From Faecalibacterium sp. UBA7177 (GTDB taxonomy: Bacteria; Bacillota; Clostridia; Oscillospirales; Ruminococcaceae), in assembly GCA_002491225.1 (NCBI GenBank), contig DKVN01000108.1, forward strand, positions 5,249-56,759: a DNA stretch of 51,511 nt. Reading direction: 5' to 3'. Position 1 is the first letter of the stretch. Each line of letters begins with the position of its first letter. The notes below the pieces were generated by a model. The model saw nothing but the letters and a program-made list of their open reading frames with translations, was not told the DNA's origin and ran no database searches. Below, piece by piece: positions 26,106-41,877 of this stretch. The position numbers and the translations under genes are program-made.

Positions 26106-27889
26106 CCCTGCCACCCCGCGGCGTTTGCGGGAGCTGAGCCCACCTCGCCCGCCGGGCCCGCCGCCGGGCGCAGATAGTCAAACCGCGTCTGCACCCGCTG
26201 GCGCCCCTTGTGGATGGCGTACACCGCCATCGGGATCGCCGTCTTGGGGCAGATGAGGTTGGTGTTGGGGTCGGGGATCAGCACCTCGCCCCGGCCGCCC
26301 CCCTCAAGGGAGACGGCGGTGCAAAAGTCCCTCTCGCAGCGCACGGTAGCGGCGGGGCCCTCGGCGGCGCGGGCGGTCTCTTGCCGGTCGTCCGCCGGGA
26401 GGGCAAAGCCGCAGTCGTAGGCCTCGCAGGCAAACTCGCTCTCGATGGTGTGCTCCCGGAGATGCCCCTCCGGGGTGGGCAGGATCCGGGTGGTCACCCG
26501 GATGCCCTCGAGGGGGGACCAGCGGACCGTGATCCCCTCCTCCCCGATGATGTAGTCCGGCTCGGCCACATCCTTGACATAGAAAAGCCGCCCCACCTTG
26601 AAGCAGAGCATGCTGTCCGGCGCGGTCTGGGCCAGGGTGTAGGGCGCGCGGCTCACCGAGAAGCCGAACCGGCTGGAATAGGCGAACTTGCAGTACTTTT
26701 CCACCGTGTGGCTGTGCTCGTCCAGTTCGGTGCGGCCGGGCACCAGGGCCACCACATTGCCCGCGTCCCGCTGCAAAATCATGTTGGCGTGGGGCAGGTA
26801 GCGGCAGGGGGACAGCGCGGGCAGCGGCGCGCACGCGGCCGCCCAGAAGGGGTGATCGTCCGGCAAAGCCAGAAAGGCGAAGCTGAAAAAGGCCCAGTAG
26901 GGGCTGCCCGGCGCGTTGTAGCTCTCGGCCATCTGCAGGTTGGGGTAGCCGTAGCCGATGCTCAGCACCCCGGCGTTGTCAAAAATGGGCCGATTGAGCC
27001 ACCAGACGAGATGCCGCACCAAAAGCCCTTTCAGCACCGGCAGCGGCAGCACCTCCTCACCCGCCAAAAGGCTCACCGCAAAAAAAGACGCCTGCGCAAA
27101 CCGGTAGGTCATCGAGCGCCCGTAGGCGATGGCCGCGCCGTCGTTTGCGAACCAGTGCAGGAAGTCCTGCGCAAATTCGTGCGCCCGCTGGCGAAACTGC
27201 GCGCAGCGCTCAGGATCCTCCCGCTGCATAAAGATGGCGTAGAGCAGCCCGAAGGACACCATTACAAAGGGGTTGTAATAGTCCTTTTCGCCGCCCGCGC
27301 CGTCCCGGTACCAGCCGCCCGCGTCGTAGTAGTCCTCCATCATGGCAAGGCCGCTCTCGATCCGCTCCCGGCTGTAGGGGCGGCCCACCACCTTTAATGC
27401 CAGGTTGGTCAGCACCGCGAACCACTGCCAGTTGCAGGCGCAGCACTCATGCCGGTCGATCTCCCACAGCCACTCGGTCAAATCGTCCTTCGCCCTGGCC
27501 GAGAGCGGGTCCCACACCCGCTTTTGCGCAAACAGCAGCCCGTAGGCGATGGCCGGCATCTCGCAGAACTTCTGGTCAAAGTCCCGGCAGGTGTGCCAGT
27601 AGTCGGGGTGGGCGGGGTCGGGGCCGTGGGTCAGCCCGGCGGCGATCAGCGCTTCAAACCCGGCGTCCCGCCCGCCGCCCGCCCAAAAGGGGACCAGCCC
27701 CCAGAGCGGCCGGGCAAAGGCCTCCATCGGCATCGCGTCGTTCTCGTAGTGGGCGCTGGTGGCCCCCAGCTCCACCCGCGCGCCGCCGGGGCTGTAAAAG
27801 GGCTTCAGGGGGTCCAGCAGCCGCAACAGGCTTGTTTGGGCCGCGGATTTTGAGGCGAAGTCCGCCTCGGTATAATGGTAGCGTTCCAT
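26102..27889 (-). CDS. DUF2264-like protein (glycan-utilisation context)
   Basis: MERYHYTEADFASK..LLDPLKPFYSPGGARVELGATSAHYENDAMPMEAFARPLWGL is DUF2264-like. ATG at 27889 after AAGGGGGA. The ORF-track extension to 28051 was rejected. Confidence 0.6.
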   Translation of the reverse strand: MERYHYTEADFASKSAAQTSLLRLLDPLKPFYSPGGARVELGATSAHYENDAMPMEAFARPLWGLVPFWAGGGRDAGFEALIAAGLTHGPDPAHPDYWHTCRDFDQKFCEMPAIAYGLLFAQKRVWDPLSARAKDDLTEWLWEIDRHECCACNWQWFAVLTNLALKVVGRPYSRERIESGLAMMEDYYDAGGWYRDGAGGEKDYYNPFVMVSFGLLYAIFMQREDPERCAQFRQRAHEFAQDFLHWFANDGAAIAYGRSMTYRFAQASFFAVSLLAGEEVLPLPVLKGLLVRHLVWWLNRPIFDNAGVLSIGYGYPNLQMAESYNAPGSPYWAFFSFAFLALPDDHPFWAAACAPLPALSPCRYLPHANMILQRDAGNVVALVPGRTELDEHSHTVEKYCKFAYSSRFGFSVSRAPYTLAQTAPDSMLCFKVGRLFYVKDVAEPDYIIGEEGITVRWSPLEGIRVTTRILPTPEGHLREHTIESEFACEAYDCGFALPADDRQETARAAEGPAATVRCERDFCTAVSLEGGGRGEVLIPDPNTNLICPKTAIPMAVYAIHKGRQRVQTRFDYLRPAAGPAGEVGSAPANAAGWQG

Positions 27890-27992
27890 CGTGATGGCAT
27901 CCCCCTTTTGTGGTGGTCGTTTGATTTGAATCATATGGCCTTTGGTGCCGCTTGTCAAGGACAAAAACAGCAAGATGGCGTGAGCGGCGCTC

Positions 27993-28021
27993 TTGTGCAA
28001 TCGGGGCCGGTATGCTACAAT
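27993..28021 (+). promoter_or_regulatory. Extended -10 promoter, probably the native ychF promoter, now separated from ychF by the island
   Basis: TTGTGC (27993..27998), 17-nt spacer, TGcTACAAT (28013..28021). Downstream are GAGGAGA and ATGAAATTAGGTATCG (28097), a copy of the ychF start. Confidence 0.55.
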
Positions 28022-28096
28022 GAGCAGGTACATCCACGGTGAAAACCGCAACGATAAACCGAACCACCGACCAGATCGAGGAGACGTGAGAAAACC

Positions 28097-28112
28097 ATGA
28101 AATTAGGTATCG
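28097..28112 (+). repeat. Left copy of the putative att core (ychF start codon region); opens a 12-codon remnant ORF
   Basis: 15 of 16 nt match 41862..41877. Reads MKLGIGVSEPVS-stop (28097..28135). Confidence 0.7.
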
Positions 28113-28241
28113 GCGTATCCGAGCCGGTTTCATAAGGATCTCCGCCTCTGTGATGAAAGCCGCTGACGCTTGAAAACATTGACTTTTATAGAAGACCGGG
28201 CAGAATAAAACCCACCGGTTTTCACTGCGGATCCATACGCC

Positions 28242-28263
28242 AATGGCGTAAAAATGGAGTAGA
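28242..28263 (+). repeat. Perfect 22-bp direct repeat, left copy (partner at 41776..41797)
   Basis: aatggcgtaaaaatggagtaga is present at both island ends, inside the ychF-start repeats. Confidence 0.9.
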
Positions 28264-28320
28264 AAATTTAACGGATTTACAGGGCAAAAAGGCCACCACT
28301 ACACAAGCGAAAATGAACGA

Positions 28321-28354
28321 CAACAGGCATGACTGGCTTTGGTCATGCCTGTTG
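28321..28354. terminator. 13-bp perfect hairpin at the left island end
   Basis: caacaggcatgac (28321..28333), 8-nt loop, gtcatgcctgttg (28342..28354). T-rich tracts follow on both strands. It lies ~150 nt downstream of the last gene of the minus-strand defence block. Confidence 0.6.
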
Positions 28355-28506
28355 CTTTGTTGCCTTTCGGGGAGAATATAGATGAAACCACCTTCGCGCC
28401 GTTTGTTTTTGCTTGTGCGTATTTATGACAAGACTAATAGCTTAAATCCCGTTGGGATAGTTTAGAGCCTCTGGGGTTCTTAATTTAACCATCGAAGTCT
28501 TTTAAC

Positions 28507-28986
28507 TTATACGGATTTTGTCATGGAGTTTATCAAAAAGACCAGTATCAGCCAAATGAAAAAAACATTGACAGCAAATAGAGCGCACGACAATGCGGAT
28601 AAGACTTTTGGTATAATCGCAAGCCAAAATGTACCGTACTGCCATTGAACGAGCATTTCCTGTATTGCTTGAAAGTCCATATCTAGAAGATAGACAGCAC
28701 TGATTGCTATGGTTGCTAAACCGCAAAAACCTGCTATGCGTAAATAGGATGCCAAGACACCCAAACCAGTTTTCGTCTTAATTTCAATATCCCGTTGCCG
28801 CTTTAATTTGTCCGCGAAGTCACTTCCGAGGATGACAGATGCGGCACCGATATACACTGCCAGAGCAATGGAAACTACAGAAATTGCAGCCTCGGATATT
28901 TTTGAATAATCTGCATCCAATAAAAACGCTACAACCAAGATTGTCACAAATATGGAGGCTCCAGCATTTCGATGTCGTTTATACAT
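28507..28986 (-). CDS. Unknown multi-pass membrane protein (159 aa), candidate effector
   Basis: 4-5 hydrophobic segments (SIFVTILVVAFLL; AISVVSIALAVYIGAASVIL; GVLASYLRIAGFCGLATIAISAVYLL; FWLAIIPKVLSALSCALFAVNVFFIWLILVFLI). GAGGAA RBS 6 nt upstream. The ATG lies 2 nt after the upstream stop. Confidence 0.75.
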   Translation of the reverse strand: MYKRHRNAGASIFVTILVVAFLLDADYSKISEAAISVVSIALAVYIGAASVILGSDFADKLKRQRDIEIKTKTGLGVLASYLRIAGFCGLATIAISAVYLLDMDFQAIQEMLVQWQYGTFWLAIIPKVLSALSCALFAVNVFFIWLILVFLINSMTKSV

Positions 28987-28988
28987 GC

Positions 28989-29774
28989 TTACTTCCTCAA
29001 TTCTGCCAACAACAGTTGCTGGATCTCCGGTGGATCATAGTGCTCGTTTTCGTCTTTGCGTGGAAAAATCTCGACACGCTTGATCACGGAAGAGAAGTCG
29101 AAAGTTTGCTCAACGCCAGCATCGTCACACCCGATGATAATGACATCCTCAAATTGGTTCTTGTCCCGATGAAAACGATCAATTAGGGCGCGCCCGGTAT
29201 GTACAGGAATATCGCCATAGGTAATTTTCAGCTGAATTTTTTCAGGAGTGTCCAGTCCCCAGAGGTCTGATACTTGGTTGAAAATATCGCCATTTTGAGA
29301 AAACAGATTGCGAACTTGCGTATATCGGAACCCACGGATAAATTTTACATGATTGCAAAATTCATCAACTGATGCGTAGACATTGTTGATTTCAAATTCT
29401 TTCTGTAGTGCATATGAGAGGTAGTCCTTCAGCGTTTTCCGCCGCGTGAGGTCATTGATATACAGGAAATGTGTATGAGTGTCATAGCACGCAAAAAATT
29501 GTTGCCGAGGCTCCACTTGGCTCTTGTTTCGTGGATTTGGCTCCAATTCGCCGGTATCCTGATTTACCACATAATCGCGAAAACTGACTGCATCATCATA
29601 ATCACATGCCAACCAGAAAAAACGTTCATCAATGACACATGTATCAATGACATACAGATTTTTCTGACCGTCCGGCTGAAACGTTTTGGGTCCTATATCA
29701 CATACTCGCTTTAGGTCATCCAACTCGGCCTCTCTTGTGCCGTCAATACGAAGTAAAAATGTGCCAAATCGCAT
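28989..29774 (-). CDS. Unknown soluble protein (261 aa), no recognisable family
   Basis: ATG at 29774 lies 6 nt after GAGGTG (preferred over the track GTG at 29783) and 29 nt after the hsdR stop. No P-loop, HD, HNH or obvious PD-(D/E)xK motif seen. Non-repetitive, globular-looking sequence. Confidence 0.75.
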   Translation of the reverse strand: MRFGTFLLRIDGTREAELDDLKRVCDIGPKTFQPDGQKNLYVIDTCVIDERFFWLACDYDDAVSFRDYVVNQDTGELEPNPRNKSQVEPRQQFFACYDTHTHFLYINDLTRRKTLKDYLSYALQKEFEINNVYASVDEFCNHVKFIRGFRYTQVRNLFSQNGDIFNQVSDLWGLDTPEKIQLKITYGDIPVHTGRALIDRFHRDKNQFEDVIIIGCDDAGVEQTFDFSSVIKRVEIFPRKDENEHYDPPEIQQLLLAELRK

Positions 29775-29803
29775 GCTATACACCTCGCTCTTTGCTTGGC
29801 CGT

Positions 29804-32800
29804 TTATGAAATATCAAATCCGCCTTCAAGAATAAACCTTCTCAGCATTTGGTCAATCTTCATGTTGATCTGGAATTTCTTGATAGGTTTGCCCTCCATC
29901 ATTTCAAGGAAAGCTTTCGCCTTTTCCTGATCCACGGTTGCCTTCAATGTGTCAAATTTACCAAACTCATTGATATTGGCTTCTGTGATCTTCGACTGCA
30001 TAAAACTACGCAGTATCGTTTCATCAACTCCGATGGCAGTAGAAAAACGATGGATTTGGTCATTTTTAGCACTGGTCATATACTCTGTAATATAATCACG
30101 GAGCGTTCTTCCTTCGTCAACTACCACATCACCGTTCTGGACATCGTGGAGGAAGATGTTTGCATATTTCTGCTCCTCTTGCGTGAGCGTTGCAAACGAC
30201 TTGTGAAGCTCATACAGCACAGCGGCAGTTTCCGCGCCATCCTGCAAAGCCTTGATGTACTTTTTGAACCGAGAGTTCATATAGTTTGCATCAATTACAC
30301 CGGTATTGATTTCCGTCAGGTAGGAGTCGATTTCATACGGCACATCCTCAACACCAGCTCCTCCGCTACCACCGGAGAACAATTCCTTATAACGCAAAGC
30401 AAGAATCAAGTAGGTGGTTTCATCGAAGTGCAGATCAACGGTCACTTTGCTGCCAGCGTTCTTAAATTCATAGGACAGCTTATCCCAAGTGAAGCCCTGT
30501 ATCTTAGCAGCCTCGAGATAGTTGTTAAGCTGTTTAAACAGTTTGGCGAATTGTCCCCGTTCCGCATGATCAACAGGCAGTTTTTCGAAGTTTTCAATTC
30601 CGGCGGCTCGGAAAATTGCCTCTATATCATCAAACAAGTCGTTCATCTTTCCGAGGTTATATTCCAATTTATCTGCAAACAAGCCAAGAGGCTTATCACC
30701 GGAATACAGCTTGAACGCTTCTTCGATGTTTCTCTGCATTGTATACGGCTTACGATAATAACGAATCGTGCCAAAGGGCTTCTCCGGACCGTAGAGGCGG
30801 TTAGTGCGGGAAAATGCCTGAATCAGCTTTTCGTAAACCAAAATCTTATCCAAGTATAGCGTGTTGATCCACTTGGAGTCAAAACCTGTCAGCATCTGAT
30901 CGACAACGATCAGCAAATCGATTTGCTGGTCGGGAGTGTGTTCAATTCCCTTGTACTGTTCTTTGTGTGCCAGACGATAGGAAATGTCCTTTTTGAAGGT
31001 TGCATAAGTCGCCATCTGGAACTTCATACCGTATCTGGTATTGTAATCTTCGATGATTTCAACAATGCCCTCTTCTTTGAAAAGCCCATTGCCATTGTTA
31101 TCGATACTGGGGTCAAACAAAGCGGTAACCTTCAGATTGCCCTTCGCTTTAAACAGCTTATAATACTGGATTGCCTCCGGAATGCTGCTGGTAGCAAAAA
31201 TCGCATGGAACTTGCTGCCATGGCTTAGGGTTGTCCAATTATCCAGAATATCATCCACTACGGCGCACTGATGCTCTTCGCGTTCGTACTGAGAAATAGG
31301 CAGATAATCTTCAATACCTTTCAAATAGTTGCCATCCGCCTGGACATATCCAGCCATCGGCACTTTTGTGTGATCCATATAATGCAGATAGACTTTTTTC
31401 TTTTTAGGATCTGCCAACGCTTCTGCCTCAGTCATTGCCTTAGCTCTTTCAAGTGCAACGGCTTTCCGAAGATCACGCTCTTTGTATGTTGGCACCATGT
31501 ATGGATCAAAGCCCAGGACATTCTTGTCCCGGATGCCGTCTGCAATACTGTACCTGTGCAGCTCATTGCCGAACACATCCGAAGTAGTGCTCATTTTCTT
31601 CTGATTTTCATCATGGATTGGTGTGCCGGTAAAGCCAAAAAACATGGCGTTCGGGAAAGTTGCTTTGATAGTACGCAGCATTTCGCCAAATACATCGCGA
31701 TGAGCTTCATCAATGATGAATACGACCCGTTTGTTCTGGATCAATTCGATGTCGTGCGCATTGAAGCCGTTTTCTTCTTCCACACGGCTCATTTTCTGAA
31801 TGGAGGTGACAATCAACGTGTTTGCGGGGTCATCGCTCCGCAGTTTTGCCACGAGAATATCCGTGTTTTCTGTGGCCTGTACAGAGTCCGTATCGTCAGC
31901 AAACCCGCGATAATCCAACAGGGACTGCGTGCCCAGTTCGACTCTGTCCATCAGGAATACAACCTTGTCGGCATCCTTGGAAGCCGCAATCAACTGTGCG
32001 GATTTGAAGCTGGTCAATGTTTTTCCGGAACCGGTGGTGTGCCAGATGTAGCCGCCCATCTGATCTTTATCAGCCCAACGGCGCATAGCAACGCGGCTGG
32101 TAATACGAGAAGTCGCATAATACTGATAGCTGCGCATAACCTTCAAAATGCCGTCGGTATCATCGGCAACGGTATAGAAGCCGATCAGCTGGTGCGCCAT
32201 AGGGATGGAAAGCAGATACTGTGCAATGTCCTTCCAGTTATTCAATGGCTCATTGTTGGCGTCCGCCCAGTGGAAGTAAAAGTCTTTGTTGAACTTTCCG
32301 TCTGGGCCGGGGTTGGCAAAATAGACCGTTTCATCCGGCTGCATGGCAATAAAAATCTGCACAAGGGAAAACAATCCGGAGAAAACACCCTCGTGTGCAT
32401 ATTTTTCGATCTGGTTGTAGGCTTGGCTGACATCCACACCGCTGCGTTTCAGTTCACAGTGAATCAACGGCATACCGTTGATCAACAGCATAAAGTCGCC
32501 ACGGCGGTTGGGCAAAACAGAGTTTCTTGCCTTGAACACCGGCTGTTCGGCAATCTGATAACGGCTTTGACCGGCGGCGATTTCCTGACGGTCATAGATT
32601 TTCAGACTGACTTCCTTACCAAAATGCAGTTCGTCCGCAGGATTGTCGCGCTTGACAGCAACGGTTTTACCATTGATAAAACCGTTGAGTTTCAGCGGCG
32701 TGCGCAGCCGGGTAATCTGGTCAAGAATCTGCTGCATTTCTCCGTCGGTCAGCGGAACATCGTTCAGCCGATCCACATCCCGGTTGTTTTCAAAGAGGAT

Positions 32801-32926
32801 CTGTTTCCAGTTCTGGATCAGCTCCTCTTCCGTTTTGTAGCGCAGAATTTCCAGCTCCCAGCCATATTTTTCTGTCAGTAAGTTGATAAGCGCCGTTTCA
32901 AAAACAGCTTCCTGTTCAAAAACCAT
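29804..32926 (-). CDS. hsdR: Type I restriction endonuclease, R subunit
   Basis: 1040 aa. HsdR N-terminal nuclease region, SF2 motor motifs (HTTGSGKTLTSF, FIIDEAHRD, FGFTGTP, LTGFDSKWINTLYLDK, QAFSRTNR). CAGGAGG RBS. Confidence 0.95.
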   Translation of the reverse strand: MVFEQEAVFETALINLLTEKYGWELEILRYKTEEELIQNWKQILFENNRDVDRLNDVPLTDGEMQQILDQITRLRTPLKLNGFINGKTVAVKRDNPADELHFGKEVSLKIYDRQEIAAGQSRYQIAEQPVFKARNSVLPNRRGDFMLLINGMPLIHCELKRSGVDVSQAYNQIEKYAHEGVFSGLFSLVQIFIAMQPDETVYFANPGPDGKFNKDFYFHWADANNEPLNNWKDIAQYLLSIPMAHQLIGFYTVADDTDGILKVMRSYQYYATSRITSRVAMRRWADKDQMGGYIWHTTGSGKTLTSFKSAQLIAASKDADKVVFLMDRVELGTQSLLDYRGFADDTDSVQATENTDILVAKLRSDDPANTLIVTSIQKMSRVEEENGFNAHDIELIQNKRVVFIIDEAHRDVFGEMLRTIKATFPNAMFFGFTGTPIHDENQKKMSTTSDVFGNELHRYSIADGIRDKNVLGFDPYMVPTYKERDLRKAVALERAKAMTEAEALADPKKKKVYLHYMDHTKVPMAGYVQADGNYLKGIEDYLPISQYEREEHQCAVVDDILDNWTTLSHGSKFHAIFATSSIPEAIQYYKLFKAKGNLKVTALFDPSIDNNGNGLFKEEGIVEIIEDYNTRYGMKFQMATYATFKKDISYRLAHKEQYKGIEHTPDQQIDLLIVVDQMLTGFDSKWINTLYLDKILVYEKLIQAFSRTNRLYGPEKPFGTIRYYRKPYTMQRNIEEAFKLYSGDKPLGLFADKLEYNLGKMNDLFDDIEAIFRAAGIENFEKLPVDHAERGQFAKLFKQLNNYLEAAKIQGFTWDKLSYEFKNAGSKVTVDLHFDETTYLILALRYKELFSGGSGGAGVEDVPYEIDSYLTEINTGVIDANYMNSRFKKYIKALQDGAETAAVLYELHKSFATLTQEEQKYANIFLHDVQNGDVVVDEGRTLRDYITEYMTSAKNDQIHRFSTAIGVDETILRSFMQSKITEANINEFGKFDTLKATVDQEKAKAFLEMMEGKPIKKFQINMKIDQMLRRFILEGGFDIS

Positions 32927-32941
32927 AGCTTGCCTCCTGTA

Positions 32942-34183
32942 TCAGACAAACATTTTCTCAAGCAGAGCTTTTTTGACAGATTGTAATTTATCAAGCTCTT
33001 GCTGACAAAGAACAATCAAATTCTCGATGTTCTCAAAATACTCTGCAATTCTATCCTGCTCATCCCGCTCGGGCAACTGAATAGTTACGGTTGTATATTC
33101 TTCGTATGAAATATTAAGCAAACCATCCATTCGTGCTCCCGAGGTAACGAGCTTACGTAACTGCTTTTCTGTTTCTTTATTGTTCAAAACCCTGGATACA
33201 AAATAGGGGTTGTGCTCGCTTATAGTAAAACAATGATACACATATGGTATTCTTGCTTCATCCACTTCTAAAGCAAAACACGAACCATACGGACGAAGCT
33301 TTGATGCGCCATGATTATAAGCCAGCTCACCTTTCTTCAAAACGATATACTTAGCAAGGCTTTGTCCAGCATTATTGAACGAGTATCTATCTGATTGATC
33401 AATAAAACCATTTGCCGCTGTTATCATCATAATTGGAGCTTTAGAAGTCTTATCCGTACGGATTATCTCGGAAGCGATATCTTTAAGGAATATAGTTCTC
33501 CATGGTTTATCGAATCCCTTAAAACGCACTTCCGGTACATCTGCACCACCTTTCGGGAACATCTTTTCCAGCATAGAGGCTTTTAGAGCATGGAGTTTTT
33601 CGAGTTTAGATTTACTTTGAACGATTAGTTTTTCCAGATTTGAAAAAATGTTTGTAACAGCTTGTTGTTCGTCGTATTCTGGAAAACATACTGTACCGAG
33701 TAAGACAGCATCATCACCAACGTTAATAGTGTTTTTTGCTCCTTTGCTAACAACAGGGAGCAAATAACCATTTAATCTTTTATCCAGGTTAAAATAGGTT
33801 TGGACAAACGGTGCATATACGGTGTCTTTCGGATGGTATACTGCATACAAGGCGGAAACAATTCCCGGTTTTCCTATGTTCGTTTTTATAATTCCGTAAG
33901 GTTGATATCTAAGAGGAGATTTTGTGTAAACTACATCATCGGTTGATACGACTCCATAATTAGTAAGAGAAGCTCCGGCAAAGCTCTTCCCTTGGTATTC
34001 CATCTGGTTAACAACACCAGCATCTCCGGAGACAGAAAGCACATCCTCTTTTTTGAAAGACTCATCAAAATTTTTGGTCTTTGATGTTTCCAGATAATAG
34101 CTCAATAATGCATTATTCCATTCTTTAGTAAACCGCGATATTCGTATCTGTGGTGCGTTATTTTTCTCTACCATATCATTCAC
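32942..34183 (-). CDS. hsdS: Type I R-M specificity subunit with two target-recognition domains
   Basis: Two variable halves separated and terminated by conserved helices (LEKLIVQSKSKLEKLHALKASMLEKMFP and IENLIVLCQQELDKLQSVKKALLEKMFV). Overlaps the hsdM stop by 8 nt. Confidence 0.9.
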   Translation of the reverse strand: MNDMVEKNNAPQIRISRFTKEWNNALLSYYLETSKTKNFDESFKKEDVLSVSGDAGVVNQMEYQGKSFAGASLTNYGVVSTDDVVYTKSPLRYQPYGIIKTNIGKPGIVSALYAVYHPKDTVYAPFVQTYFNLDKRLNGYLLPVVSKGAKNTINVGDDAVLLGTVCFPEYDEQQAVTNIFSNLEKLIVQSKSKLEKLHALKASMLEKMFPKGGADVPEVRFKGFDKPWRTIFLKDIASEIIRTDKTSKAPIMMITAANGFIDQSDRYSFNNAGQSLAKYIVLKKGELAYNHGASKLRPYGSCFALEVDEARIPYVYHCFTISEHNPYFVSRVLNNKETEKQLRKLVTSGARMDGLLNISYEEYTTVTIQLPERDEQDRIAEYFENIENLIVLCQQELDKLQSVKKALLEKMFV

Positions 34184-36953
34184 CCGTTAAAAGAGACTTG
34201 AATTGCTCCAACCCCTTCATGTCATACTCGTTTCCTGTCAGTTCATCAATCATGGAAGAAAGCGCTTCCTCGGATTTCTGAATCTGCTCGTCCAATTCCA
34301 AATAAGTGACGACATACTTGTCCGCCAACGCCTGTACCGCCTTTTCCAGTGTGTCAATGATTGCCTCCGGCATGGCACGGAGAGACGCGCACAGCGGAAC
34401 AATCCATTTCAGGCGCAGGAGGTCAAGAACCTGCTCATCACTCAGCCCTTCAATGGTTTCTTTGGTTTTCATGTGGAGCGTATAGGATCTTTCCTTGACA
34501 TCCTTTTTGACGGCTTTTTCTTCTGCCATCAGCTTATCGGCACAGACCATCTTCGCCTCAAAGGACTCTTCCGGGAAGGAATATGCCTCGCGCAGCGTTT
34601 TCATATATGCCGCGACTTTGCCCTTGGCATACGGGGCATTTCCATCTACGGACTCCCAGTTCACTTCCTTATGCTCAAAGATATATTGCAGTTTGGCCGC
34701 CTTTCCGGCTTTAGCATCTATCAATGCAACATATCCCTGCAGGGCAGTAAGTTCCGGAGAAGAAATATCTGCATAGATTTCCGCAAGTTTTGCTGCAAAC
34801 TCTTTAGGTACAAATGCAGTATTGTCATCATTCAGGAACTCGCCGCGATCACCCTCATCAATGGAATCTATGATTTCTGTCAGCTCGGCGGCTATTTCGT
34901 CCAATCTGGATTCTTTTGCCTTGAGTGCTTCATAATCTTCCCGCAGAAGCGTAGTCTGCACCAGATCAAAGGGAATGACATGGCCTACCCAGCCGTTCTG
35001 TACTTCTTCTTCCTTATCGTCTTTCTTTTTGATGACCATATTGGGGTCTACCTGCTTTGTGGCGGCAAAACCTTCCGTCTGGATAATTTCAAGATCGGTG
35101 GAAATCATGTTCCACTTGTCATCCAACAGTTGATAAGCCTGATACTTGTCTATCAGAGGAAGCGGTGCAACACGGACAAAGATATTTTGTGTAATGGTAT
35201 CCTCGGCCTTGGAGACATTCAGGTCCATCATTTTTTCGATCAGTTCGCCATCCAGATATGTATCAAAATCCGCGAACGCCGACTGATGTGCTGCAATGAA
35301 CGCTTGCACATCGGCACTGCCTTCGATGGCTTCTTTTATATTTTTAACTGTCAAAGCTGAATATGGGGTTACATCGGTGGCAAACAGAACACTCCTCAGC
35401 TGTGGGAACGCAGTCCAATACTGTTCCAGAAGATCAATTTCATGGTTGGGAATGCCGCCGAACATGGTGGCGTAAATATCCCAAGTTTCTGTCGCTTCGG
35501 ATGAATCGATATAACGGGGAATGTTCAGATTATATCCATTGCGGCGAATCTCTTCCTTGGAGACCAGCCGGGCAAATTTTTCAATACTTTCAGGACGGGC
35601 AGCAACAGCGTCCACAATCCTCTTGATATCGGATGCCATCAGTTTGTTGGTCTTACCAACTTTGGTGAATCCCTTGGAAGCGTCGATAAAAAGCACATCA
35701 GAAGCTTCGCGTTTTTGCCGTAAAACCATAATGATGGTGGGAATGCCCGTGCCATAGAAAATATTTGCGGGCAGTCCGATAATTGCTTCGATGTTGTTAT
35801 TTTCGATCAGATTTCGGCGCATACGCCCCTCGCCTTCGCCCAGTCCATCAGCACCTCCAACAGCATCACCACGGAACAGGACACCATGAGGGAGGACGAT
35901 GGTCATAATACCATCTGGTTTTACATGGTACAGGTCATGAAGCAGGAAGGCATAGTCCGCTTTTCCTTTTGGTGCCATACCATAGCGATAACGGGGATCG
36001 GTTTCCTTGTGAGACGGGTCCCAGTGCTGTGAATAAGGCGGGTTGGAAACCACAGCATCCAGATACAACGGGTTATATGTCTGCGTGACATCATCGTACA
36101 TAGGCCAGTCCTGCTCCAGCGTATCGCCACAGCGAGTGAAGATATTGGCCGGATTGATGCCGCGCATAACAAGATTCATACGGGTCAGATTGTATGTGTT
36201 TTCTTTTAGCTCCTGCGCATAGTACATGATGCTGTCTTTGTTCTTCAGGTACTTGGCAGTACTCTTGCCGATGGTGATCAAAAGAGAGCCGGAACCGCTC
36301 GTAGGATCATATATTTCGATTTTCTCGCGATCCTTCAAGTGATTTGCGACAATCTCGGACATAAGCTGAGACACTTCATGAGGTGTATAGAACTCACCGG
36401 CCTTCTTTCCGGCATTTGCAGCAAAGTTGCTGATTAGATATTCGTAGATGAAGCCCAAAATATCATAGTCCTGTCTGCCGTCGGTGGGAATATCCTTGAT
36501 CAGCTGAATCAAATCGCGGATAGCTTTTGTCTGATTGCTGGTGCTGTCACCGAGTTTGCTCAGACCAGTTTCCAGTGTATTAAAGATTTTGCTGAACACC
36601 TTTTTCTGCGTATCGCTGATTAAACGATTGAATGCAGAGAGAGCGGTTCTCACATTGTCAACGGTAAAGCTATTTCCCTTATCCAGCCATGTCGAGAAAA
36701 GATTATCATAGGCGATGAAATATCCCAGATGCTGCTGACAATAATCAACAAGTTCCTCGTTGTTTTCATGTACATGTTCCTGGAGGTCAGCTTCTTCATA
36801 TCCGTCCTTTTTTAGAAAATTCACTTCTTTGTCAGAGAGAAACTTATAGAAGATAAAACCGAGAATGTAGTCTTTATATTCGTTAGCCTCAATTTTGGAA
36901 CGCATTTTATTTGCGGATTCCCAGATTTTATTGGCAAGCTGTTGTTTGTTCAT
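34176..36953 (-). CDS. hsdM: Type I R-M methyltransferase subunit with a long C-terminal extension (925 aa)
   Basis: HsdM_N start (LANKIWESANKMRSKIEANEYKDYILGFIFYKFLSD), AdoMet motif (YDPTSGSGSLL), catalytic VVSNPPYS, NLNIPRYID. ATG at 36953 lies 7 nt after AAAGGAG. The track start at 37046 was rejected. Confidence 0.93.
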   Translation of the reverse strand: MNKQQLANKIWESANKMRSKIEANEYKDYILGFIFYKFLSDKEVNFLKKDGYEEADLQEHVHENNEELVDYCQQHLGYFIAYDNLFSTWLDKGNSFTVDNVRTALSAFNRLISDTQKKVFSKIFNTLETGLSKLGDSTSNQTKAIRDLIQLIKDIPTDGRQDYDILGFIYEYLISNFAANAGKKAGEFYTPHEVSQLMSEIVANHLKDREKIEIYDPTSGSGSLLITIGKSTAKYLKNKDSIMYYAQELKENTYNLTRMNLVMRGINPANIFTRCGDTLEQDWPMYDDVTQTYNPLYLDAVVSNPPYSQHWDPSHKETDPRYRYGMAPKGKADYAFLLHDLYHVKPDGIMTIVLPHGVLFRGDAVGGADGLGEGEGRMRRNLIENNNIEAIIGLPANIFYGTGIPTIIMVLRQKREASDVLFIDASKGFTKVGKTNKLMASDIKRIVDAVAARPESIEKFARLVSKEEIRRNGYNLNIPRYIDSSEATETWDIYATMFGGIPNHEIDLLEQYWTAFPQLRSVLFATDVTPYSALTVKNIKEAIEGSADVQAFIAAHQSAFADFDTYLDGELIEKMMDLNVSKAEDTITQNIFVRVAPLPLIDKYQAYQLLDDKWNMISTDLEIIQTEGFAATKQVDPNMVIKKKDDKEEEVQNGWVGHVIPFDLVQTTLLREDYEALKAKESRLDEIAAELTEIIDSIDEGDRGEFLNDDNTAFVPKEFAAKLAEIYADISSPELTALQGYVALIDAKAGKAAKLQYIFEHKEVNWESVDGNAPYAKGKVAAYMKTLREAYSFPEESFEAKMVCADKLMAEEKAVKKDVKERSYTLHMKTKETIEGLSDEQVLDLLRLKWIVPLCASLRAMPEAIIDTLEKAVQALADKYVVTYLELDEQIQKSEEALSSMIDELTGNEYDMKGLEQFKSLLTGE

Positions 36954-37097
36954 GATCACTGCTCCTTTGTAGAATGCTGTCGTAGTCTGTCGAAAAGACG
37001 ATTTAGGAAGCGTTGTAAACCAAGGGGTTAGTACGCCCATTCGCACCCCTGAGGTGGAACCTGCTCCACAATTTCGAGTTGGGGTCGCTGATAATAA

Positions 37098-37922
37098 TTA
37101 CCCGACCAAGGTCCTCACAGCATCCATAATCTGCTCGTAGGTAATATCCTGCGCGTAAGCGAACTGCTTGCGGTATTTATCCCACATGGCGCGGAGTTCC
37201 GGGCTTTCTTCGATGTTGTGCAGTATTCCGGGGACATCTGCGATCTGCTCTGCAGTGCCGCGATGCTTGGCCGTTGCACTCAGCGCCTCAGCAAACACAG
37301 CTTTATCAAATTTCTGTGTTGTGGTCAGTATGTAGGCATCATAAAAATCTCTGGGGCGGGTATTGAACACACCGCGCCGCAGGATGGTTTCCACTTTTTC
37401 CGCCATGACGGTTTCAATGTTATACGCCCACAGTTCGTAGGACTTCTCATCATCAAAAATCTCGGAGAAGTTGTACTGCACCGCGTGAGGCGTGATGGCA
37501 TCGCCGGTGGACACATCAATACTCATCGGAGTCAGCATAGTGTCGAACCGGGCCTTCAGCATGACGCGGTAGCCGCCGTAAATGTCATCCTCTCGGATGG
37601 GCGATATGGTCCCGATTTCAAATACCACGCCGTCGTCAAGAGGAATTGCACAAATCTGCTCCAACGCACTGCGGATCGCATCCGGTGTGAGGGGCAGGTT
37701 TTTCAATGTGGTGTCCAAGTCCATCGTTGCCCGGTTGTCCAGACCGACGATGGCCGCCACCAGCATACCGCCCTTCAAAACAAACTTCTCTTTGTATTCA
37801 GAGGCGGACAAGCGCACCAGCAAACGCTCGAACATATAGTTCTGCAGAATGACCTGTGCCGGAATATTCTTCTGTTTTGCGATGTTGCGGATCTTCGCTT
37901 TCAGACTCATTGCTTTGCTCAC
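37098..37922 (-). CDS. abiEii: AbiEii/AbiGii-family nucleotidyltransferase toxin (DUF1814)
   Basis: SLKAKIRNIAKQKNIPAQVILQNYMFERLLVRLS..FVLKGGMLV..ATMDLD is typical of AbiEii. Its GTG start overlaps the abiEi stop (GTGA). Confidence 0.85.
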   Translation of the reverse strand: MSKAMSLKAKIRNIAKQKNIPAQVILQNYMFERLLVRLSASEYKEKFVLKGGMLVAAIVGLDNRATMDLDTTLKNLPLTPDAIRSALEQICAIPLDDGVVFEIGTISPIREDDIYGGYRVMLKARFDTMLTPMSIDVSTGDAITPHAVQYNFSEIFDDEKSYELWAYNIETVMAEKVETILRRGVFNTRPRDFYDAYILTTTQKFDKAVFAEALSATAKHRGTAEQIADVPGILHNIEESPELRAMWDKYRKQFAYAQDITYEQIMDAVRTLVG

Positions 37923-38512
37923 AGAAGCACCTCCAAATACTGCCGCAGGACATTTGCCACGCGCATTTTCTTCGCATAAGAGTGAAGTTTATTCAAATCC
38001 TTTTTAGGGCTGGCGGCGTAGAGCTTCAAAGCGGCAAGAAATGTTTCCGTACCGACTTTGTTGCGGCTGCGGATCATGTCGCAGATTGTGCGCTCAAGGT
38101 CATACACCGGCACTTCGTTTCCGGCAGGTGTGTTCAGTGTAGTCCGGCCAAGATCAAACAACTCTGGTTTGATGTAATAGACCTTGCACTCGTTCTTGAT
38201 TGCTGCCGATACCGTGTAATCGGACGGCACCGTGATCGTATGCTCAAAGGGTGTCCGATCCGAAATGCCATGAAGGAACAGGGCGGTTTCGTGGGAAAGA
38301 ATGATCTGATTGGAACGCTTGCTGATGGACAACAGCTCATCCTGCATATCGTCAGGAAGAATGTACTGTCCCTGAACGATTCTATGAATTTTATCTTCTC
38401 TGCACAGTTTATAAAGCATAGCTTTAGAGATGCCGTGCGCTATGGCAGTTTTCGTTTCAATGATGCCGCCATGTTCCTGAGCAATGGCGGCAAGCTCGGC
38501 CATGTAATCCAT
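37919..38512 (-). CDS. abiEi: AbiEi-family antitoxin / transcriptional regulator
   Basis: N-terminal wHTH pattern GGIIETKTAIAHGISKAMLYKLCREDKIHRIVQGQYILPDD. ATG at 38512 after GAGGTG. The track start at 38572 was rejected. Confidence 0.8.
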   Translation of the reverse strand: MDYMAELAAIAQEHGGIIETKTAIAHGISKAMLYKLCREDKIHRIVQGQYILPDDMQDELLSISKRSNQIILSHETALFLHGISDRTPFEHTITVPSDYTVSAAIKNECKVYYIKPELFDLGRTTLNTPAGNEVPVYDLERTICDMIRSRNKVGTETFLAALKLYAASPKKDLNKLHSYAKKMRVANVLRQYLEVLL

Positions 38513-38543
38513 TTCGATCACCTCACGATACCAACTCAAAGAT

Positions 38544-38572
38544 ATTATAGACAATTTCGTTGTCAAAGTCAA
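38544..38572 (-). promoter_or_regulatory. Consensus sigma-70 promoter for abiEi-abiEii
   Basis: On the minus strand: TTGACT (38572..38567), 17-nt spacer, TATAAT (38549..38544). It lies ~30 nt upstream of the abiEi ATG. Confidence 0.7.
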
Positions 38573-38628
38573 CAGAGCAAGAAAACTTTTGCTATGAAAC
38601 TAATTACGATTTCGTTATCAAAGTAAAC
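38554..38628 (-). promoter_or_regulatory. Two 20-bp direct repeats (18 of 20 identical), candidate AbiEi operators
   Basis: atttcgttgtcaaagtcaac (38554..38573) and atttcgttatcaaagtaaac (38609..38628) have starts 55 bp apart. The proximal copy covers the -35 box and spacer of the abiE promoter. Confidence 0.6.
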
Positions 38629-38778
38629 ATTATAAGGGCTTGGGATATTCCCAAAATCTCCGAGTGTACGGACACCGGATTTGCTTGCTATTCTCTAAAA
38701 AACTGAATCATCTTCGTTATCACGCGCTCTCGATTTCAAAACCGAGGGTGCTTTTTATTTTCAAAATGGGGGAATTGA

Positions 38779-39117
38779 ATGATGAAAAATCGTACCAGAC
38801 CAGTCCGCATTGAGTTCCGTGTCACCGAGCAGGAACGTCAACTAATCCAGAAAAAGATGGAGCAGCTTGGCACCAAAAACATGGGAGCCTATCTTCGCAA
38901 GATGGCGATTGACGGCTACATCATCAAGGTGGATTACACCGAGCAGAAAAAGCTGGCCGCTGCCGTCAGCAACGCGGCTGCTAACATCAATCACATCTGC
39001 CGCCGTATCAATCAGACCGGGCGATTCTATGCAGACGATGTTGCCGAGCTGAAAGCCAGACAAGCCGAGATCTGGCAGCTGCTGAAACAGAGCCAGAAAG
39101 ATGAAATTCCGCCATAA
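38779..39117 (+). CDS. mobC: MobC-family relaxosome accessory protein
   Basis: RIEFRVTEQERQLIQKKMEQLG..YLRKMAIDGYI and LAAAVSNAAANINHICRRINQTG match the MobC pattern (ribbon-helix-helix plus NxNQ-type helix). Confidence 0.8.
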   Translation: MMKNRTRPVRIEFRVTEQERQLIQKKMEQLGTKNMGAYLRKMAIDGYIIKVDYTEQKKLAAAVSNAAANINHICRRINQTGRFYADDVAELKARQAEIWQLLKQSQKDEIPP

Positions 39118-39119
39118 CG

Positions 39120-39223
39120 GGATTTTCCGTGTGTGGATTTTCCGTCACCGGATTTTCAGACGATGGATAATCTGACACTCCGGAGCGTTCCGTGATTGGA
39201 TTTCTGGACATCGGTTTTTGGAA
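39120..39223 (+). repeat. Iteron-like array with a 15-bp period
   Basis: GGATTTTCCGT at 39120 and 39135. Degenerate copies at 39150 (ggattttcaga), 39165 (ggataatctga), 39198 (ggatttctgga) and 39213 (ggtttttggaa). Followed by the AT-rich tract taataaataagaaataaataaa (39251..39272). Confidence 0.75.
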
Positions 39224-39340
39224 CGGCCACCGGGGATGAAATTCAGTCCCTAATAAATAAGAAATAAATAAACTCTCAAGAGAATCATCCATCAATCCAA
39301 TCAATACCGGATTAGATAGGATGGATGGGATGGAGGCGTT

Positions 39341-39724
39341 ATGAAAAGTTTTTACAAGTTTACTGTGAAAAGCCCGGCGGCTTCTTACATACCGCTGCCA
39401 CGATTTCTGCTGCAGGATGAACAGCTGCGGGGCATCAGCAACGATGCCAAGGTGTTATATGCGCTCCTGCTGGACAGAGCAAGCGTATCCCGGCAAAACG
39501 GATATGTTGAGCCGGATGGGACGATTCGTCTGTACTTTACGCTGGAACAGGCGCAGAAGAAGCTGCACCGCAGCCGACAGTGTGCTACCCGGATTTTCCG
39601 CGAGCTGGAATACAGCGGCCTGATCAATCGAAAGAAGCAAGGGCTTGGCAAACCGGCGGTTATCACGCTGAACTACCCGGCAGACGCCAAGCTCATCACG
39701 AAGGAGGAAACCGATGAAAAGTGA
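39341..39724 (+). CDS. Replication initiator protein A N-terminal domain (RepA_N) protein
   Basis: YIPLPRFLLQDEQLRGISNDAKVLYALLLDRASVSRQNGYVEPDGTIRLYFTLEQAQKKL..TRIFRELEYSGLINRKKQGLGKP is the RepA_N signature. Confidence 0.75.
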   Translation: MKSFYKFTVKSPAASYIPLPRFLLQDEQLRGISNDAKVLYALLLDRASVSRQNGYVEPDGTIRLYFTLEQAQKKLHRSRQCATRIFRELEYSGLINRKKQGLGKPAVITLNYPADAKLITKEETDEK

Positions 39725-40109
39725 AGTTACAAATACGAAATACCCGGCGAATACGCTGCCGCGGCTCACCCCCGGACAAGCCCGAAGTGTCCGAAGACTC
39801 ACCAGCCAATGCTGCAACAACGACAATGGAAACTGCCTTTTGCTGGACGATGGCGATCCCTGCGTCTGTCCGCAGACAATATCCTACAGTCTGATCTGCA
39901 AGCACTTCCGGCGCGGAGTTCTCCCGCTGGAGCCGGAATTGGAGGACGCGATCCTCCGTCCCAAAGGGAACCGCCGCTGCAAGGTCTGCGGTGCATACTT
40001 TATGGCCGGTTCCGGACGAGCTAAATACTGTGCGGAATGTGCCGCCGAAGTACACCGAAAGCAAAAGGCAGCACACGCCCGAAAAAAGAGGTCGGGCGTA
40101 GACAATTAA
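39714..40109 (+). CDS. Cysteine-rich VLP-domain protein
   Basis: CCNNDNGNCLLLDDGDPCVCPQ..LICKHF..VLP..CKVCGAYF..YCAECAAEV matches the Cys_rich_VLP pattern common in clostridial integrative elements. Confidence 0.7.
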   Translation: MKSEVTNTKYPANTLPRLTPGQARSVRRLTSQCCNNDNGNCLLLDDGDPCVCPQTISYSLICKHFRRGVLPLEPELEDAILRPKGNRRCKVCGAYFMAGSGRAKYCAECAAEVHRKQKAAHARKKRSGVDN

Positions 40110-40240
40110 CCCCTCGCAAACCCTTTGTATACAAGGCTTTCCAAAAGCCACTTTTCAAGAGTGCGTGTGTTTTTACTTACCCCCTGAAAAAACCGATTCA
40201 AACCGTCTACGTTTTTTGATTGATGAAAGGAGTCAAAACC

Positions 40241-40450
40241 ATGGAAAACAATAAGATCGAAAGAGTTCCCATTCACCTCAAGCTGGCCCTCACCTCCAAG
40301 GAGGCCGCCGAGTACAGCAACATCGGTATCAACAAGATCGACAGTATGCTCCGCGCTCCCAAGTGCCCCTTCGTCCTGTTCGTTGGTACGAAGAAGCTGG
40401 TCAAGCGCAAGGAGTTTGAGCAGTACATCAGCTCCAAACTGGTGATCTGA
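40241..40450 (+). CDS. xis: Excisionase-type HTH DNA-binding protein
   Basis: 69 aa. LTSKEAAEYSNIGINKIDSML..VGTKKLVKRKEFEQYI (HTH_17/excisionase-like). ATG at 40241 lies 8 nt after GAAAGGAG. Sits immediately upstream of int. Confidence 0.7.
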   Translation: MENNKIERVPIHLKLALTSKEAAEYSNIGINKIDSMLRAPKCPFVLFVGTKKLVKRKEFEQYISSKLVI

Positions 40451-40569
40451 GCGAAAAACGGCGATACGCTACAAGAAGTTTTCAAATTCACCTTGAGAGA
40501 AAGAGCACATTGTGATATACTTAAAGTGTAGTGGTGTGCTCTTTTCTCTCTGGGGAAAGGAGTTCATAC

Positions 40570-41751
40570 ATGGGAAAGAATCTCAAAGGCAGAGAATGCG
40601 GTAAGGGTATCTACCAGAGGAAGGACGGATTGTACAGCGCCCGGTTCGTAGACAGAGCCGGTAAGCGGCACGAGAAATACTTCCAGACGGTTCCCGAAGC
40701 AAGAAACTGGATCGCGGATGCAAAGTATGCGGATGCACACGCGGAGGTTTTTGTCGGCACCGATATTACGGTGGATGAGTGGTTTGATTTCTGGATCGAG
40801 AATATTGTCGGAGATTTGGCTCCCAATACGCTCCGCAACTACCGTGACAGATACAAACACAACATCCAGCCGGTGATCGGCAGGATAAAACTTACGGATG
40901 TGAAACCCATGCACTGCAAAAAGGTATTCATCGAAATGGATGCCGATTATTCCGGCTCCACCATCCGTCAGGCGTACATCACCATGGGGACGATGCTGAA
41001 AGCGGCGAAGATGAACGATCTCATCTCCAAGCATCCCATGGACGGTGTTCGATTTACCAAGCCTGTCCGTGCGGCAAACGACATCAAGTTCCTCACCCGC
41101 GAAGAACAGCGTATCTTTCTGGAAACGGCCAGACGCTCTCATAATTATAACCAATATGCGCTGATCCTCGAAACGGGACTGCGCACCGGCGAGCTGATCG
41201 GCCTGACATGGGATGCCGTTGACTTCGAGAAACGGACGCTGACGGTGAACAAAACGCTGGAGTTCCGGCACGGTACAAAATCGTGGCGGGCGGGGCCTCC
41301 CAAAACGCCCAACAGCTATCGTACCATTCCGCTGACAGACACGGCCTATGGTATTCTCCGTGAAGTGTGGGACAGCCGGGAAGAACGAAAATCTTCTCCT
41401 GTGCTGGAACAGACTTTGGAGTACATGGATCGTCGAAGCGGCAGCATGGCAAAGCTGGTGATGCGTGATCTGGTCTTTATCAACTGGCGCACCGGAGAAC
41501 CGGCAAAGAACAGCTCCTATGACACCCACCTCTACAAGCTCTGCGACGAAGCAGGGATACCCCGCTTTTGTATGCATGCGCTGCGCCACACCTATGCTAC
41601 GCGGGCGATTGAGAGCGGTATGCAGCCCAAGGTGCTGCAAAAGCTGCTGGGACACGGCAGCATCAAAACCACCATGGATCGGTACGTCCATGTGACCACC
41701 GAATCTCTGGACCAAGCGGTACGGCAATTTGAAATGAATGGGGTTATCTGA
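40570..41751 (+). CDS. int: Tyrosine site-specific integrase with an N-terminal arm-binding-type domain
   Basis: N-terminus [26 protein letters not shown]. Catalytic residues in [44 protein letters not shown] at 40570 after GGAAAGGAG. Confidence 0.93.
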
Positions 41752-41775
41752 ATGAGAGCCGCGGTTCTGCACCAA

Positions 41776-41797
41776 AATGGCGTAAAAATGGAGTAGA
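41776..41797 (+). repeat. Perfect 22-bp direct repeat, right copy (partner at 28242..28263)
   Basis: aatggcgtaaaaatggagtaga, 25 nt after the int stop. Confidence 0.9.
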
Positions 41798-41861: not shown

Positions 41862-41877
41862 ATGAAATTAGGCATCG
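41862..41877 (+). repeat. Right copy of the putative att core, which is the functional ychF start
   Basis: ATGAAATTAGGCATCG. It differs from the left copy only at a synonymous Gly codon position. Confidence 0.7.

Follow-up and report, generated by a model that had tools for sequence, protein, structure and literature searches.

Two genes behind a restriction operon of a gut Faecalibacterium: a probable Rex-like pair of orphan sequence

What is the function of two small genes that follow the Type I restriction gene hsdR so closely, at the tail of a restriction-modification (R-M) operon, in a stretch of 51,511 nucleotides (nt) from Faecalibacterium sp. UBA7177 (assembly GCA_002491225.1, contig DKVN01000108.1, positions 5,249 to 56,759; the whole stretch is called the window here)? 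The first of them, which we call A, occupies 28989..29774 on the minus strand and encodes a soluble and acidic protein of 261 amino acids (aa; isoelectric point, pI, 5.0) with a predicted two-domain fold of the RexA/RdgC kind, putatively the sensor or DNA-binding component. The second, B, is found at 28507..28986 on the same strand and encodes a protein of 159 aa with four transmembrane helices, putatively a RexB-like membrane effector. A first-pass annotation of this DNA, made from its letters, had taken the pair for a candidate new defence or R-M guard system whose products could be placed in no family by eye. According to our analysis it is not without precedent, as the predicted fold of A, the gene order, the sizes of the products and the four-helix partner match those of RexAB (PMC11077077, PMC12894663, PMC6426596), and we consider it reasonably probable, relying on a structural model and on analogy, that A-B is a RexAB-type (Rex-like) two-gene abortive-infection module.

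The coupling of the two open reading frames (ORFs) to each other and to hsdR is tight, and the first-pass annotation had read it correctly. The hsdR frame ends at 29804, and the minus-strand spacer of 29 nt that separates it from the start of A (29775..29803, read from sequence) carries a GAGGTG ribosome-binding site 6 nt 5' of the ATG. This start is backed by the homologs, all of which begin with M[RK]F; an alternative in-frame GTG upstream, at 29783, would give a protein of 264 aa. A ends with TAA, after which come 2 nt and the ATG of B, and a second ribosome-binding site, GAGGAA, lies inside the final codons of A, ahead of that ATG. Together both genes make a cassette of 1.27 kb. The strong hairpin that had been noticed behind the pair also holds: this intrinsic-terminator-like structure (28320..28355, minus strand), with a stem of 14-15 base pairs (bp), 7 of them GC, and a T-rich tail on the minus strand, CGTTCATTTT, closes the operon, and no terminator-like site between 28.0 and 39.2 kb is stronger. 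Reading of A-B through from hsdR is plausible, and we put it no higher because a weak sigma-70-like site (9/12 matches) is present at 29856-29829, within the 3' end of hsdR, and the frequency of promoter-like sites in this part of the window does not exceed that of shuffled sequence.

Both genes have large families. Homologous clusters at 90% identity number 135 for A and 84 for B, and about 500 are found for A at 50% identity, which puts both genes far past chance. A profile search with A among 1.84 billion representative proteins gave 501 clusters (50% identity) at E<=1e-3, of which 388 reach E<=1e-10; the clusters listed are mostly of 250-290 aa, and the family is found mainly in gut Bacillota, that is, in Oscillospiraceae and their relatives. 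Where the sources name homologs of A and B, the products are called hypothetical and the organisms are Oscillospiraceae, Faecalibacterium, Oscillibacter and other Clostridia; one member of the 90%-identity cluster of A itself is annotated as Dysosmobacter sp.

Whether such homologs always occur as a pair was a question raised by the first-pass annotation, and the answer is affirmative at every informative full-length A. Among 25 genome loci compared by tblastn, a B homolog lies directly 3' of A in 19; in three more, which belong to one metagenome-assembled genome (MAG) of Clostridia and two of Alphaproteobacteria and whose A is just 29-30% identical, inspection of ORFs reveals a frame of 145-151 aa with four transmembrane segments behind A; in the remaining three, where no B-like frame is seen, A is truncated or the downstream DNA is missing. 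Divergent pairs in Acidaminococcus and in MAGs of Oscillospiraceae and Bacteroidales likewise have a four-transmembrane frame behind A. A B-like ORF stands behind every full-length A having sufficient downstream DNA, including members at 29-39% identity, and the distance from the stop of A to the start of B is between -22 and +6 nt over 22 loci. A and B are real genes and an obligate pair.

What points to Rex is the predicted structure of A. The AlphaFold2 monomer model, built on an alignment of 34 sequences (predicted local distance difference test, pLDDT, 77; predicted template-modelling score, pTM, 0.62), was compared with the PDB by Foldseek, and the best two matches were chains of lambda RexA, 8TWQ chain B (E 9.5e-8, prob 1.0) and chain A (E 5.5e-7), followed by RdgC, 2OWY (E 1.7e-4), and Iml3/Chl4 (E 3.5e-3 to 1.1e-2), with no other target in the PDB list under E 0.03. 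RexA, RdgC and Iml3/Chl4 form one fold group according to the RexA structure paper (PMC11077077), and the targets of A coincide with that published group. The succession of predicted secondary-structure elements in A is also colinear with that of RexA: in the model an N-terminal beta-sheet domain (~1-125) is followed by a middle domain (127-226) with 4-5 strands and helices and, at the C-terminus, by a helix (248-260), and in RexA the dimerisation domain (143-234) is flanked by the two parts of a split globular domain (1-139 + 248-279). In the BFVD database the A model matches best with uncharacterised proteins of gut siphoviruses (E down to 5.5e-13), and next come phage proteins annotated as RdgC.

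For B, the earlier description spoke of 4-5 transmembrane helices and a basic N-terminus; the N-terminus is basic indeed (MYKRHK), and of the two counts four is the one retained, by the AlphaFold2 model (pLDDT 80; helices 2-23, 31-54, 74-101, 118-158) as well as by hydropathy, which gives four transmembrane segments as for RexB. The loop between helices 2 and 3 is basic and strongly conserved (LGS..A.KLK.Q.D.EIKTKT.LGVL.YLR.AG in the family alignment A2), and with its four helices and its basic segments, which by this topology face the cytoplasm, B resembles RexB in form. The loop between helices 3 and 4 is hypervariable, the most variable portion of the B family. The rank-2 BFVD match of the A model and the rank-2 match of the B model come from one virus, Siphoviridae sp. 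ctylc9, a shared origin that may lend weak backing to a Rex-like pairing. In its anatomy, the Rex-like kind, taken broadly, consists of a soluble component with the RexA fold, which A has according to its model, and of a conserved small partner with four transmembrane segments encoded immediately downstream, which is what B is. The kind is further characterised by dimerisation and non-specific DNA binding of the soluble component and by a phage exclusion, with depolarised membranes or arrested growth, that needs both genes, traits which A-B would be expected to share.

A mechanism for A-B can be modelled on lambda RexAB, Sbash gp30/31 and the RexABpp pair of Pseudomonas putida. A, as a protein of the RexA/RdgC fold and probably a dimer, would detect in the cytoplasm a phage-specific DNA or nucleoprotein cue and would then act on B via the conserved basic cytoplasmic loop; B, as an oligomeric four-transmembrane protein, would depolarise or permeabilise the membrane, with the consequence that growth stops and the infection is aborted. 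Expressed, as is plausible, from the tail of the abiE-hsdMSR unit, the pair may serve as a second defence line behind restriction. DNA sensing, interaction of A with B, membrane damage and phage protection are what we infer by analogy with those systems, and the same can be said of the earlier formula of a sensor and a membrane effector: a conserved pair of a soluble and a small membrane protein, residing in defence islands, is there, and the roles of sensor and effector are given to them by analogy.

These roles might in principle be reversed, as in Kiwa or in gp30/31 of mycobacteriophage Butters, B being a membrane sensor or a sequestering anchor and A the effector, which, freed or activated, would clamp phage DNA and block its replication, recombination or late transcription, the cell not being killed. 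The fold predicted for A is a DNA-clamp fold, and both RexA and RdgC bind DNA non-specifically (PMC11077077); in Butters the effector is the RexA-like gp30, kept in check by the membrane protein gp31 (PMC12894663), and Kiwa combines a transmembrane sensor with a DNA-binding effector (PMC13276650). The variable loop of B between helices 3 and 4, which would be turned outward if the basic N-terminus is cytoplasmic, would suit an external sensor too. We nevertheless hold such a reversal to be quite improbable: no PADLOC match to KwaA or KwaB and no Pfam family, hence no DUF4868, was obtained for A or B, no Kiwa chain occurs in the top 50 Foldseek PDB matches for A, the gene order is that of Rex and not of Kiwa, and the membrane protein is the described effector in lambda and, among the four further Rex-like systems in the literature, in three (Sbash, CarolAnn and P. 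putida).

The sequence libraries, in turn, say nearly nothing of the pair. Pfam, NCBIfam and PHROGs gave no family for A or B (for A, Pfam at E<=1) and PADLOC gave no match for B; ten distant members of the A family, and then 67 members of the broad A alignment, showed no consistent Pfam family, and PDB sequence-profile searches with alignments A1, A2 and A3 returned empty. The lone PADLOC match of A is to PDLC03200, 'Specificity_I' (residues 87-144, E 2.6e-4), which we reject as noise or a contaminated seed because A lacks the architecture of an S subunit; as a separate observation, that seed may include A-like ORFs collected at hsd loci, in agreement with the R-M linkage, or the match may be noise. 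The A-B family is invisible to Pfam, NCBIfam and PADLOC. The statement that no family can be named for either product is therefore true of sequence profiles and, for A, not of structure: its model falls in with the RexA fold group, and that of B with none.

It must be said that a number of results weigh against the Rex-like assignment. The PADLOC models of RexA and RexB, on which lambda RexA and RexB themselves score 9e-110 and 8.6e-61 as a positive control, are not matched by A, B or their relatives; RexA, DUF4747, RdgC and DUF4868 are all absent from the Pfam matches of the 67 A-family members; hhalign gives Prob 0.2% for these 67 sequences against 23 RexA sequences and 0.5% for the B family (A2) against RexB. 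The structural match of A to RexA is itself moderate (template-modelling score ~0.41, root-mean-square deviation ~10 Å, at a model pLDDT of 77), and the same fold belongs to RdgC, whose role is not in defence; for the B model BFVD offers no significant neighbour (best E 0.11). A is acidic, with a pI of 5.0 against 8.6 for the basic RexA. The pair lies outside any prophage immunity region, with no repressor gene beside it in the window, and tblastn of A found zero matches in 50,697 GenBank phage records and zero in 72,556 plasmid records (PLSDB), an IMG/VR scan with alignment A1 adding a single locus. As profile-profile homology is missing, the relationship of A-B to RexAB is restricted to fold and architecture, and in these terms we regard the pair, on its predicted structure, as a sequence-orphan and previously unrecognised Rex-like relative that is widespread in gut Bacillota.

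Since the pair was met behind hsdR, one has to consider its link to restriction. By "directly behind an R subunit" we mean that the R gene is immediately 5' of A on the same strand. In the window A lies 29 nt behind an EcoR124-type HsdR, and in locus L058 it lies 51 nt behind the HsdR of a related hsdM-hsdS-hsdR block, for which EcoR124_C is not listed. In members of the family of elements inserted at ychF (L002-5, L009, L010, L013, L020, L021, L026-29) A follows a Type III Res by ~6-40 nt, and in L047 it is adjacent to a HindI-type HsdR. Two Alphaproteobacteria MAGs (L024/25) have an EcoEI-type HsdR in the order hsdR-A-B-hsdS-AAA_15/21-DUF4276-hsdM, where B overlaps the hsdS start by 4 nt and A is 30% identical to the window protein. 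Adjacency to R subunits is found in four or five lineages, with three types of Type I HsdR and with Type III Res; the tendency of A-B to sit 3' of restriction R genes is recurrent and notable, and it is non-obligate. The 'unknown' ORFs of 312, 361 and 386 aa seen 5' of A in several loci were rejected as new partners, being C-terminal pieces of Type III Res.

This position invites the view that A-B is a guard coupled in its function to the restriction enzymes that depend on ATP, an 'R-linked ORF' module comparable to PrrC or RloC. A would keep watch on the R subunit or on the DNA states that it produces, for example translocating complexes that have stalled or been inhibited, or ends left by cleavage, and would trigger B upon defeat of restriction. 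The placement of A directly behind R subunits of differing families (EcoR124-, HindI- and EcoEI-type HsdR and Type III Res) speaks for it, as do R-M genes within 7 kb of the pair in L043 (hsdR-hsdM-hsdS-232aa-A-B), L008, L030, L054 and L056. All Type III cases, however, come from one element family and count as a single event. The pair also occurs with no R-M in reach at L001 (AbiE-A-B), L035-38 (SRAP-A-B), L040-42, L046 and L052 (AbiJ-A-B), and again at L012, L015, L018, L019 and L023. No defence genes are commoner than those of R-M, and Type I loci are known to take in Abi genes unrelated to them; AbiH, AAA_13 and AAA_15/DUF4276 are embedded in such loci here as well. A, moreover, lacks any nuclease or ATPase domain like those of PrrC and RloC. 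A dedicated guard role for A-B is possible, and on this evidence we find it unlikely.

Details of those Type I loci are worth recording in themselves. AAA_15/21 and DUF4276 genes lie between hsdS and hsdM in L024 (12575-14301), an AAA_13 gene between hsdS and hsdM in L030 (327-1451) and an AbiH gene between hsdS and hsdR in L054 (13008-14051), which illustrates hsd operons as landing pads for genes of the Abi type.

In general, the neighbours of A-B span restriction of Types I, II, III and IV as well as AbiE, AbiJ and AbiH. AbiEii is met in L001, AbiJ in L052, where the pair lies in a polysaccharide biosynthesis cluster, GmrSD with a PLD-helicase in L030, Hachiman in L035, AAA_15/21 in L036-38, a helicase with AAA_23 in L046 and SLFN/AlbA_2 in L017; Fic and NUDIX proteins, integrases, serine recombinases and relaxases are also found near the pair. 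Six loci (L011, L012, L015, L018, L019, L023) show no recognisable defence neighbour. Recurring proteins for which Pfam has no family may be additional defence genes: one of 464 aa is encoded ~600 nt 3' of B after SRAP-A-B (L035-L038, L006), and two, of 232 aa and 363 aa, flank the pair in L043-45 (~590 nt downstream of B). In Gemmiger sp. An50 (L009, 8319-9964) the mod-res genes 5' of A-B have decayed to a mod fragment and a Res C-terminal piece of 361 aa, with A-B left intact, which suggests that the pair is kept independently of the restriction system.

Such varied contexts, with and without R-M, mark A-B as a cassette that is autonomous and mobile, of a kind usual in defence islands. Of the two possibilities offered by the first-pass annotation, an autonomous pair or a guard of the adjacent Type I enzyme, the former is the one that agrees with occurrence after Type III res, AbiEii and AbiJ, near GmrSD and Hachiman and in the absence of R-M, and a tie to this particular hsd operon does not hold. 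As to its other two questions on neighbourhood, the pair does recur in defence and mobile islands and directly behind R subunits, and it does occur without hsd genes. It may even be suggested, which we ourselves find decidedly unlikely, that A-B is a Rex-like module turned into a dedicated partner of ATP-dependent (Type I and III) restriction, a 'restriction-failure alarm' in which A would read the DNA or R-subunit states of a blocked or overwhelmed restriction and then fire the membrane effector B. If true, this would explain the presence of A-B behind four different R-subunit families and between hsdR and hsdS, and would give a defined trigger to the 70-year-old Rex paradigm.

Returning to the Rex-like reading and its genomic setting, the pair forms the last cargo genes of an integrative mobilizable element of ~13.5 kb (28242..41797), recognised by direct repeats, low GC content and Pfam backbone genes. 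A perfect 22-bp direct repeat, AATGGCGTAAAAATGGAGTAGA, bounds it at 28242-28263 and 41776-41797; its GC content is 41-53%, against 64-72% across most of the flanks, and the terminator behind B is still within it. Its backbone, by Pfam, consists of an integrase, Cys_rich_VLP, RepA_N and NikA/MobC, and it is inserted beside ychF, which the tyrosine integrase gene (40531-41751, plus strand) adjoins. The upstream abiE-hsdMSR block that the first reading had described is borne out by Pfam, with hsdS as a candidate: on the minus strand, abiEi/abiEii (37098..38572; AbiEii 4.8e-46, AbiEi_4 6e-5) head the block, hsdM and the candidate hsdS follow (32942..37046; HsdM_N and N6_Mtase for hsdM, gene calls in L048), and then comes hsdR (29804..32926), a Type I restriction subunit with HSDR_N, SWI2_SNF2, T1R_D3-like and EcoR124_C matches, the last at its EcoR124-type C-terminus. 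The same att-like sequence borders elements related to this one in L026, of Faecalibacterium duncaniae, and in L013, of Gemmiger, which carry int-...-NikA-(abiE)-mod-res-A-B-serine recombinase, and Type III R-M takes the place of Type I in this element family in Faecalibacterium, Gemmiger and Pseudoflavonifractor (L026, L013, L020). Related elements with the same backbone and A-B imply that both of these are conserved and that Type I and Type III systems replace each other as restriction cargo.

As many copies of the pair lie at the distal end of this one family of integrative mobilizable elements, beside recombinases, one could think of a function outside defence, namely in maintenance, transfer or recombination control of the element, for instance as a membrane-anchored RdgC-like modulator of RecA, in entry exclusion or as an island-stabilising addiction module. 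Proteins of the RdgC fold regulate recombination, and lambda RexA tunes the lysis-lysogeny switch independently of exclusion (PMC11077077), both of which would agree with it. But the pair is also found where that element is absent, within hsd operons and in the polysaccharide cluster next to AbiJ, its neighbours are overwhelmingly defence and not transfer genes, and RdgC does not share the strictly conserved membrane partner; a function of this sort we consider very improbable.

Some observations concern the element and its borders in their own right. The window hsdM (34176-37046, minus strand) is unusually long, 925-956 aa, with ~400 residues past N6_Mtase that have no Pfam match, and a similarly long HsdM of 920 aa heads the hsdMSR-A-B block of L058. 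The ORF in the position of hsdS (32942-34183, minus strand; 387-413 aa) has no match to Methylase_S or any other Pfam family at E<=1e-3, and is perhaps a specificity subunit that has diverged strongly, perhaps a protein of another sort. Just beyond the left end of the element, a stretch of 20 nt (28097-28116) agrees at 17/20 positions with the 5' start of ychF at 41862-41881 (ATGAAATTAGGTATCGGCGT vs ATGAAATTAGGCATCGTCGG) and may be an integration-site remnant or a chance match. A further ORF of 159 aa just beyond the element end (27654-28133, minus strand) overlaps the 5' region of a DUF2264 gene, has no Pfam match and is probably no gene.

Rex is the oldest known abortive-infection system, and it has been considered rare because its detection rests on narrow sequence models. 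With a family of ~500 clusters that escapes Pfam, PADLOC and also NCBIfam, on which NCBI genome annotation relies, Rex-like modules may be far commoner than their counts and, if A-B is one of them, are not confined to prophages. The recurrent fusion to R subunits would be a handle on what Rex-like sensors detect and on layered defence, with restriction first and suicide second, on small mobile islands; the A-B family could also join the libraries of defence finders.

It remains to compare A-B with the named systems. PrrC and RloC are single-protein ABC-ATPase anticodon nucleases, and A-B resembles them in position, within hsd operons or as their last genes (the window, L058, L047, and L024/25 between hsdR and hsdS). 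A and B, however, carry no ATPase or nuclease signature among Pfam, NCBIfam or PADLOC domains, and by domain content, as well as by a residence in hsd operons that is not obligate, we reject membership in this type of guard. RdgC is similar to A as the second-best structural match, a protein of no more than ~300 aa on the same fold, and the E-value of A against RexA is ~1000-fold better than against RdgC. RdgC is encoded by a housekeeping gene that stands alone and is not known to have a membrane partner or to lie in defence islands; A has no RdgC Pfam family, always stands with a transmembrane partner, is found in defence contexts, and its likeness to RdgC is structural only, so that this assignment is rejected as well. 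Kiwa (KwaA with four transmembrane segments, KwaB with DUF4868) likewise joins a small multi-pass membrane protein to a soluble DNA-binding protein, which A putatively is. It is rejected on the PADLOC, Pfam, Foldseek and gene-order grounds given above, Kiwa having the transmembrane gene first and A-B the soluble one. This order, which the first-pass annotation had pointed to as opposite to Kiwa, is confirmed, and there is nothing unusual about it, being the normal Rex order.

With lambda RexAB the similarity is closest in architecture. Both have a soluble protein of ~260-280 aa with the RexA/RdgC two-domain fold, predicted in the case of A, and directly next to it a four-transmembrane membrane protein, 144 aa in RexB and 159 aa in B; the rexA-rexB order is shared, with a gap of 15 nt in lambda and 2 nt in the window, and both reside on an integrated mobile element and are expressed in the host. 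They differ in that neither lambda protein has detectable sequence homology to A or B, and in that lambda RexAB, of enterobacterial lambdoid prophages, lies beside the cI/cro switch, whereas A-B, mainly of gut Bacillota, lies on integrative mobilizable elements or in defence islands, often behind R subunits. Lambda RexAB sensu stricto, as defined by the PADLOC RexA/RexB models, Pfam PF15969 for RexA and location in the immunity region, does not include A-B.

Further parallels are the systems of P. putida, Sbash and CarolAnn, which, unlike A-B, are prophage-encoded. Sbash gp30/31 has been tied to RexAB by a common DUF4747 motif and a four-transmembrane partner (PMC6426596), a motif that sets gp30 and RexA apart from A and the 67 family members, in which Pfam does not find it; CarolAnn is a further system of the RexAB type (PMC6426596, PMC6426606). 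For PP_5643/PP_5644 of P. putida prophage P1, DNA binding, phage defence and RexB-dependent membrane damage have been demonstrated (PMC12894663). In all these systems, as in A-B, the RexA-like protein is recognised solely by remote or structural similarity and the neighbouring four-helix membrane protein has no homology to RexB. Going by the published descriptions, A-B is likened to them by an equal standard of recognition, and there the defence function was then confirmed by experiment.

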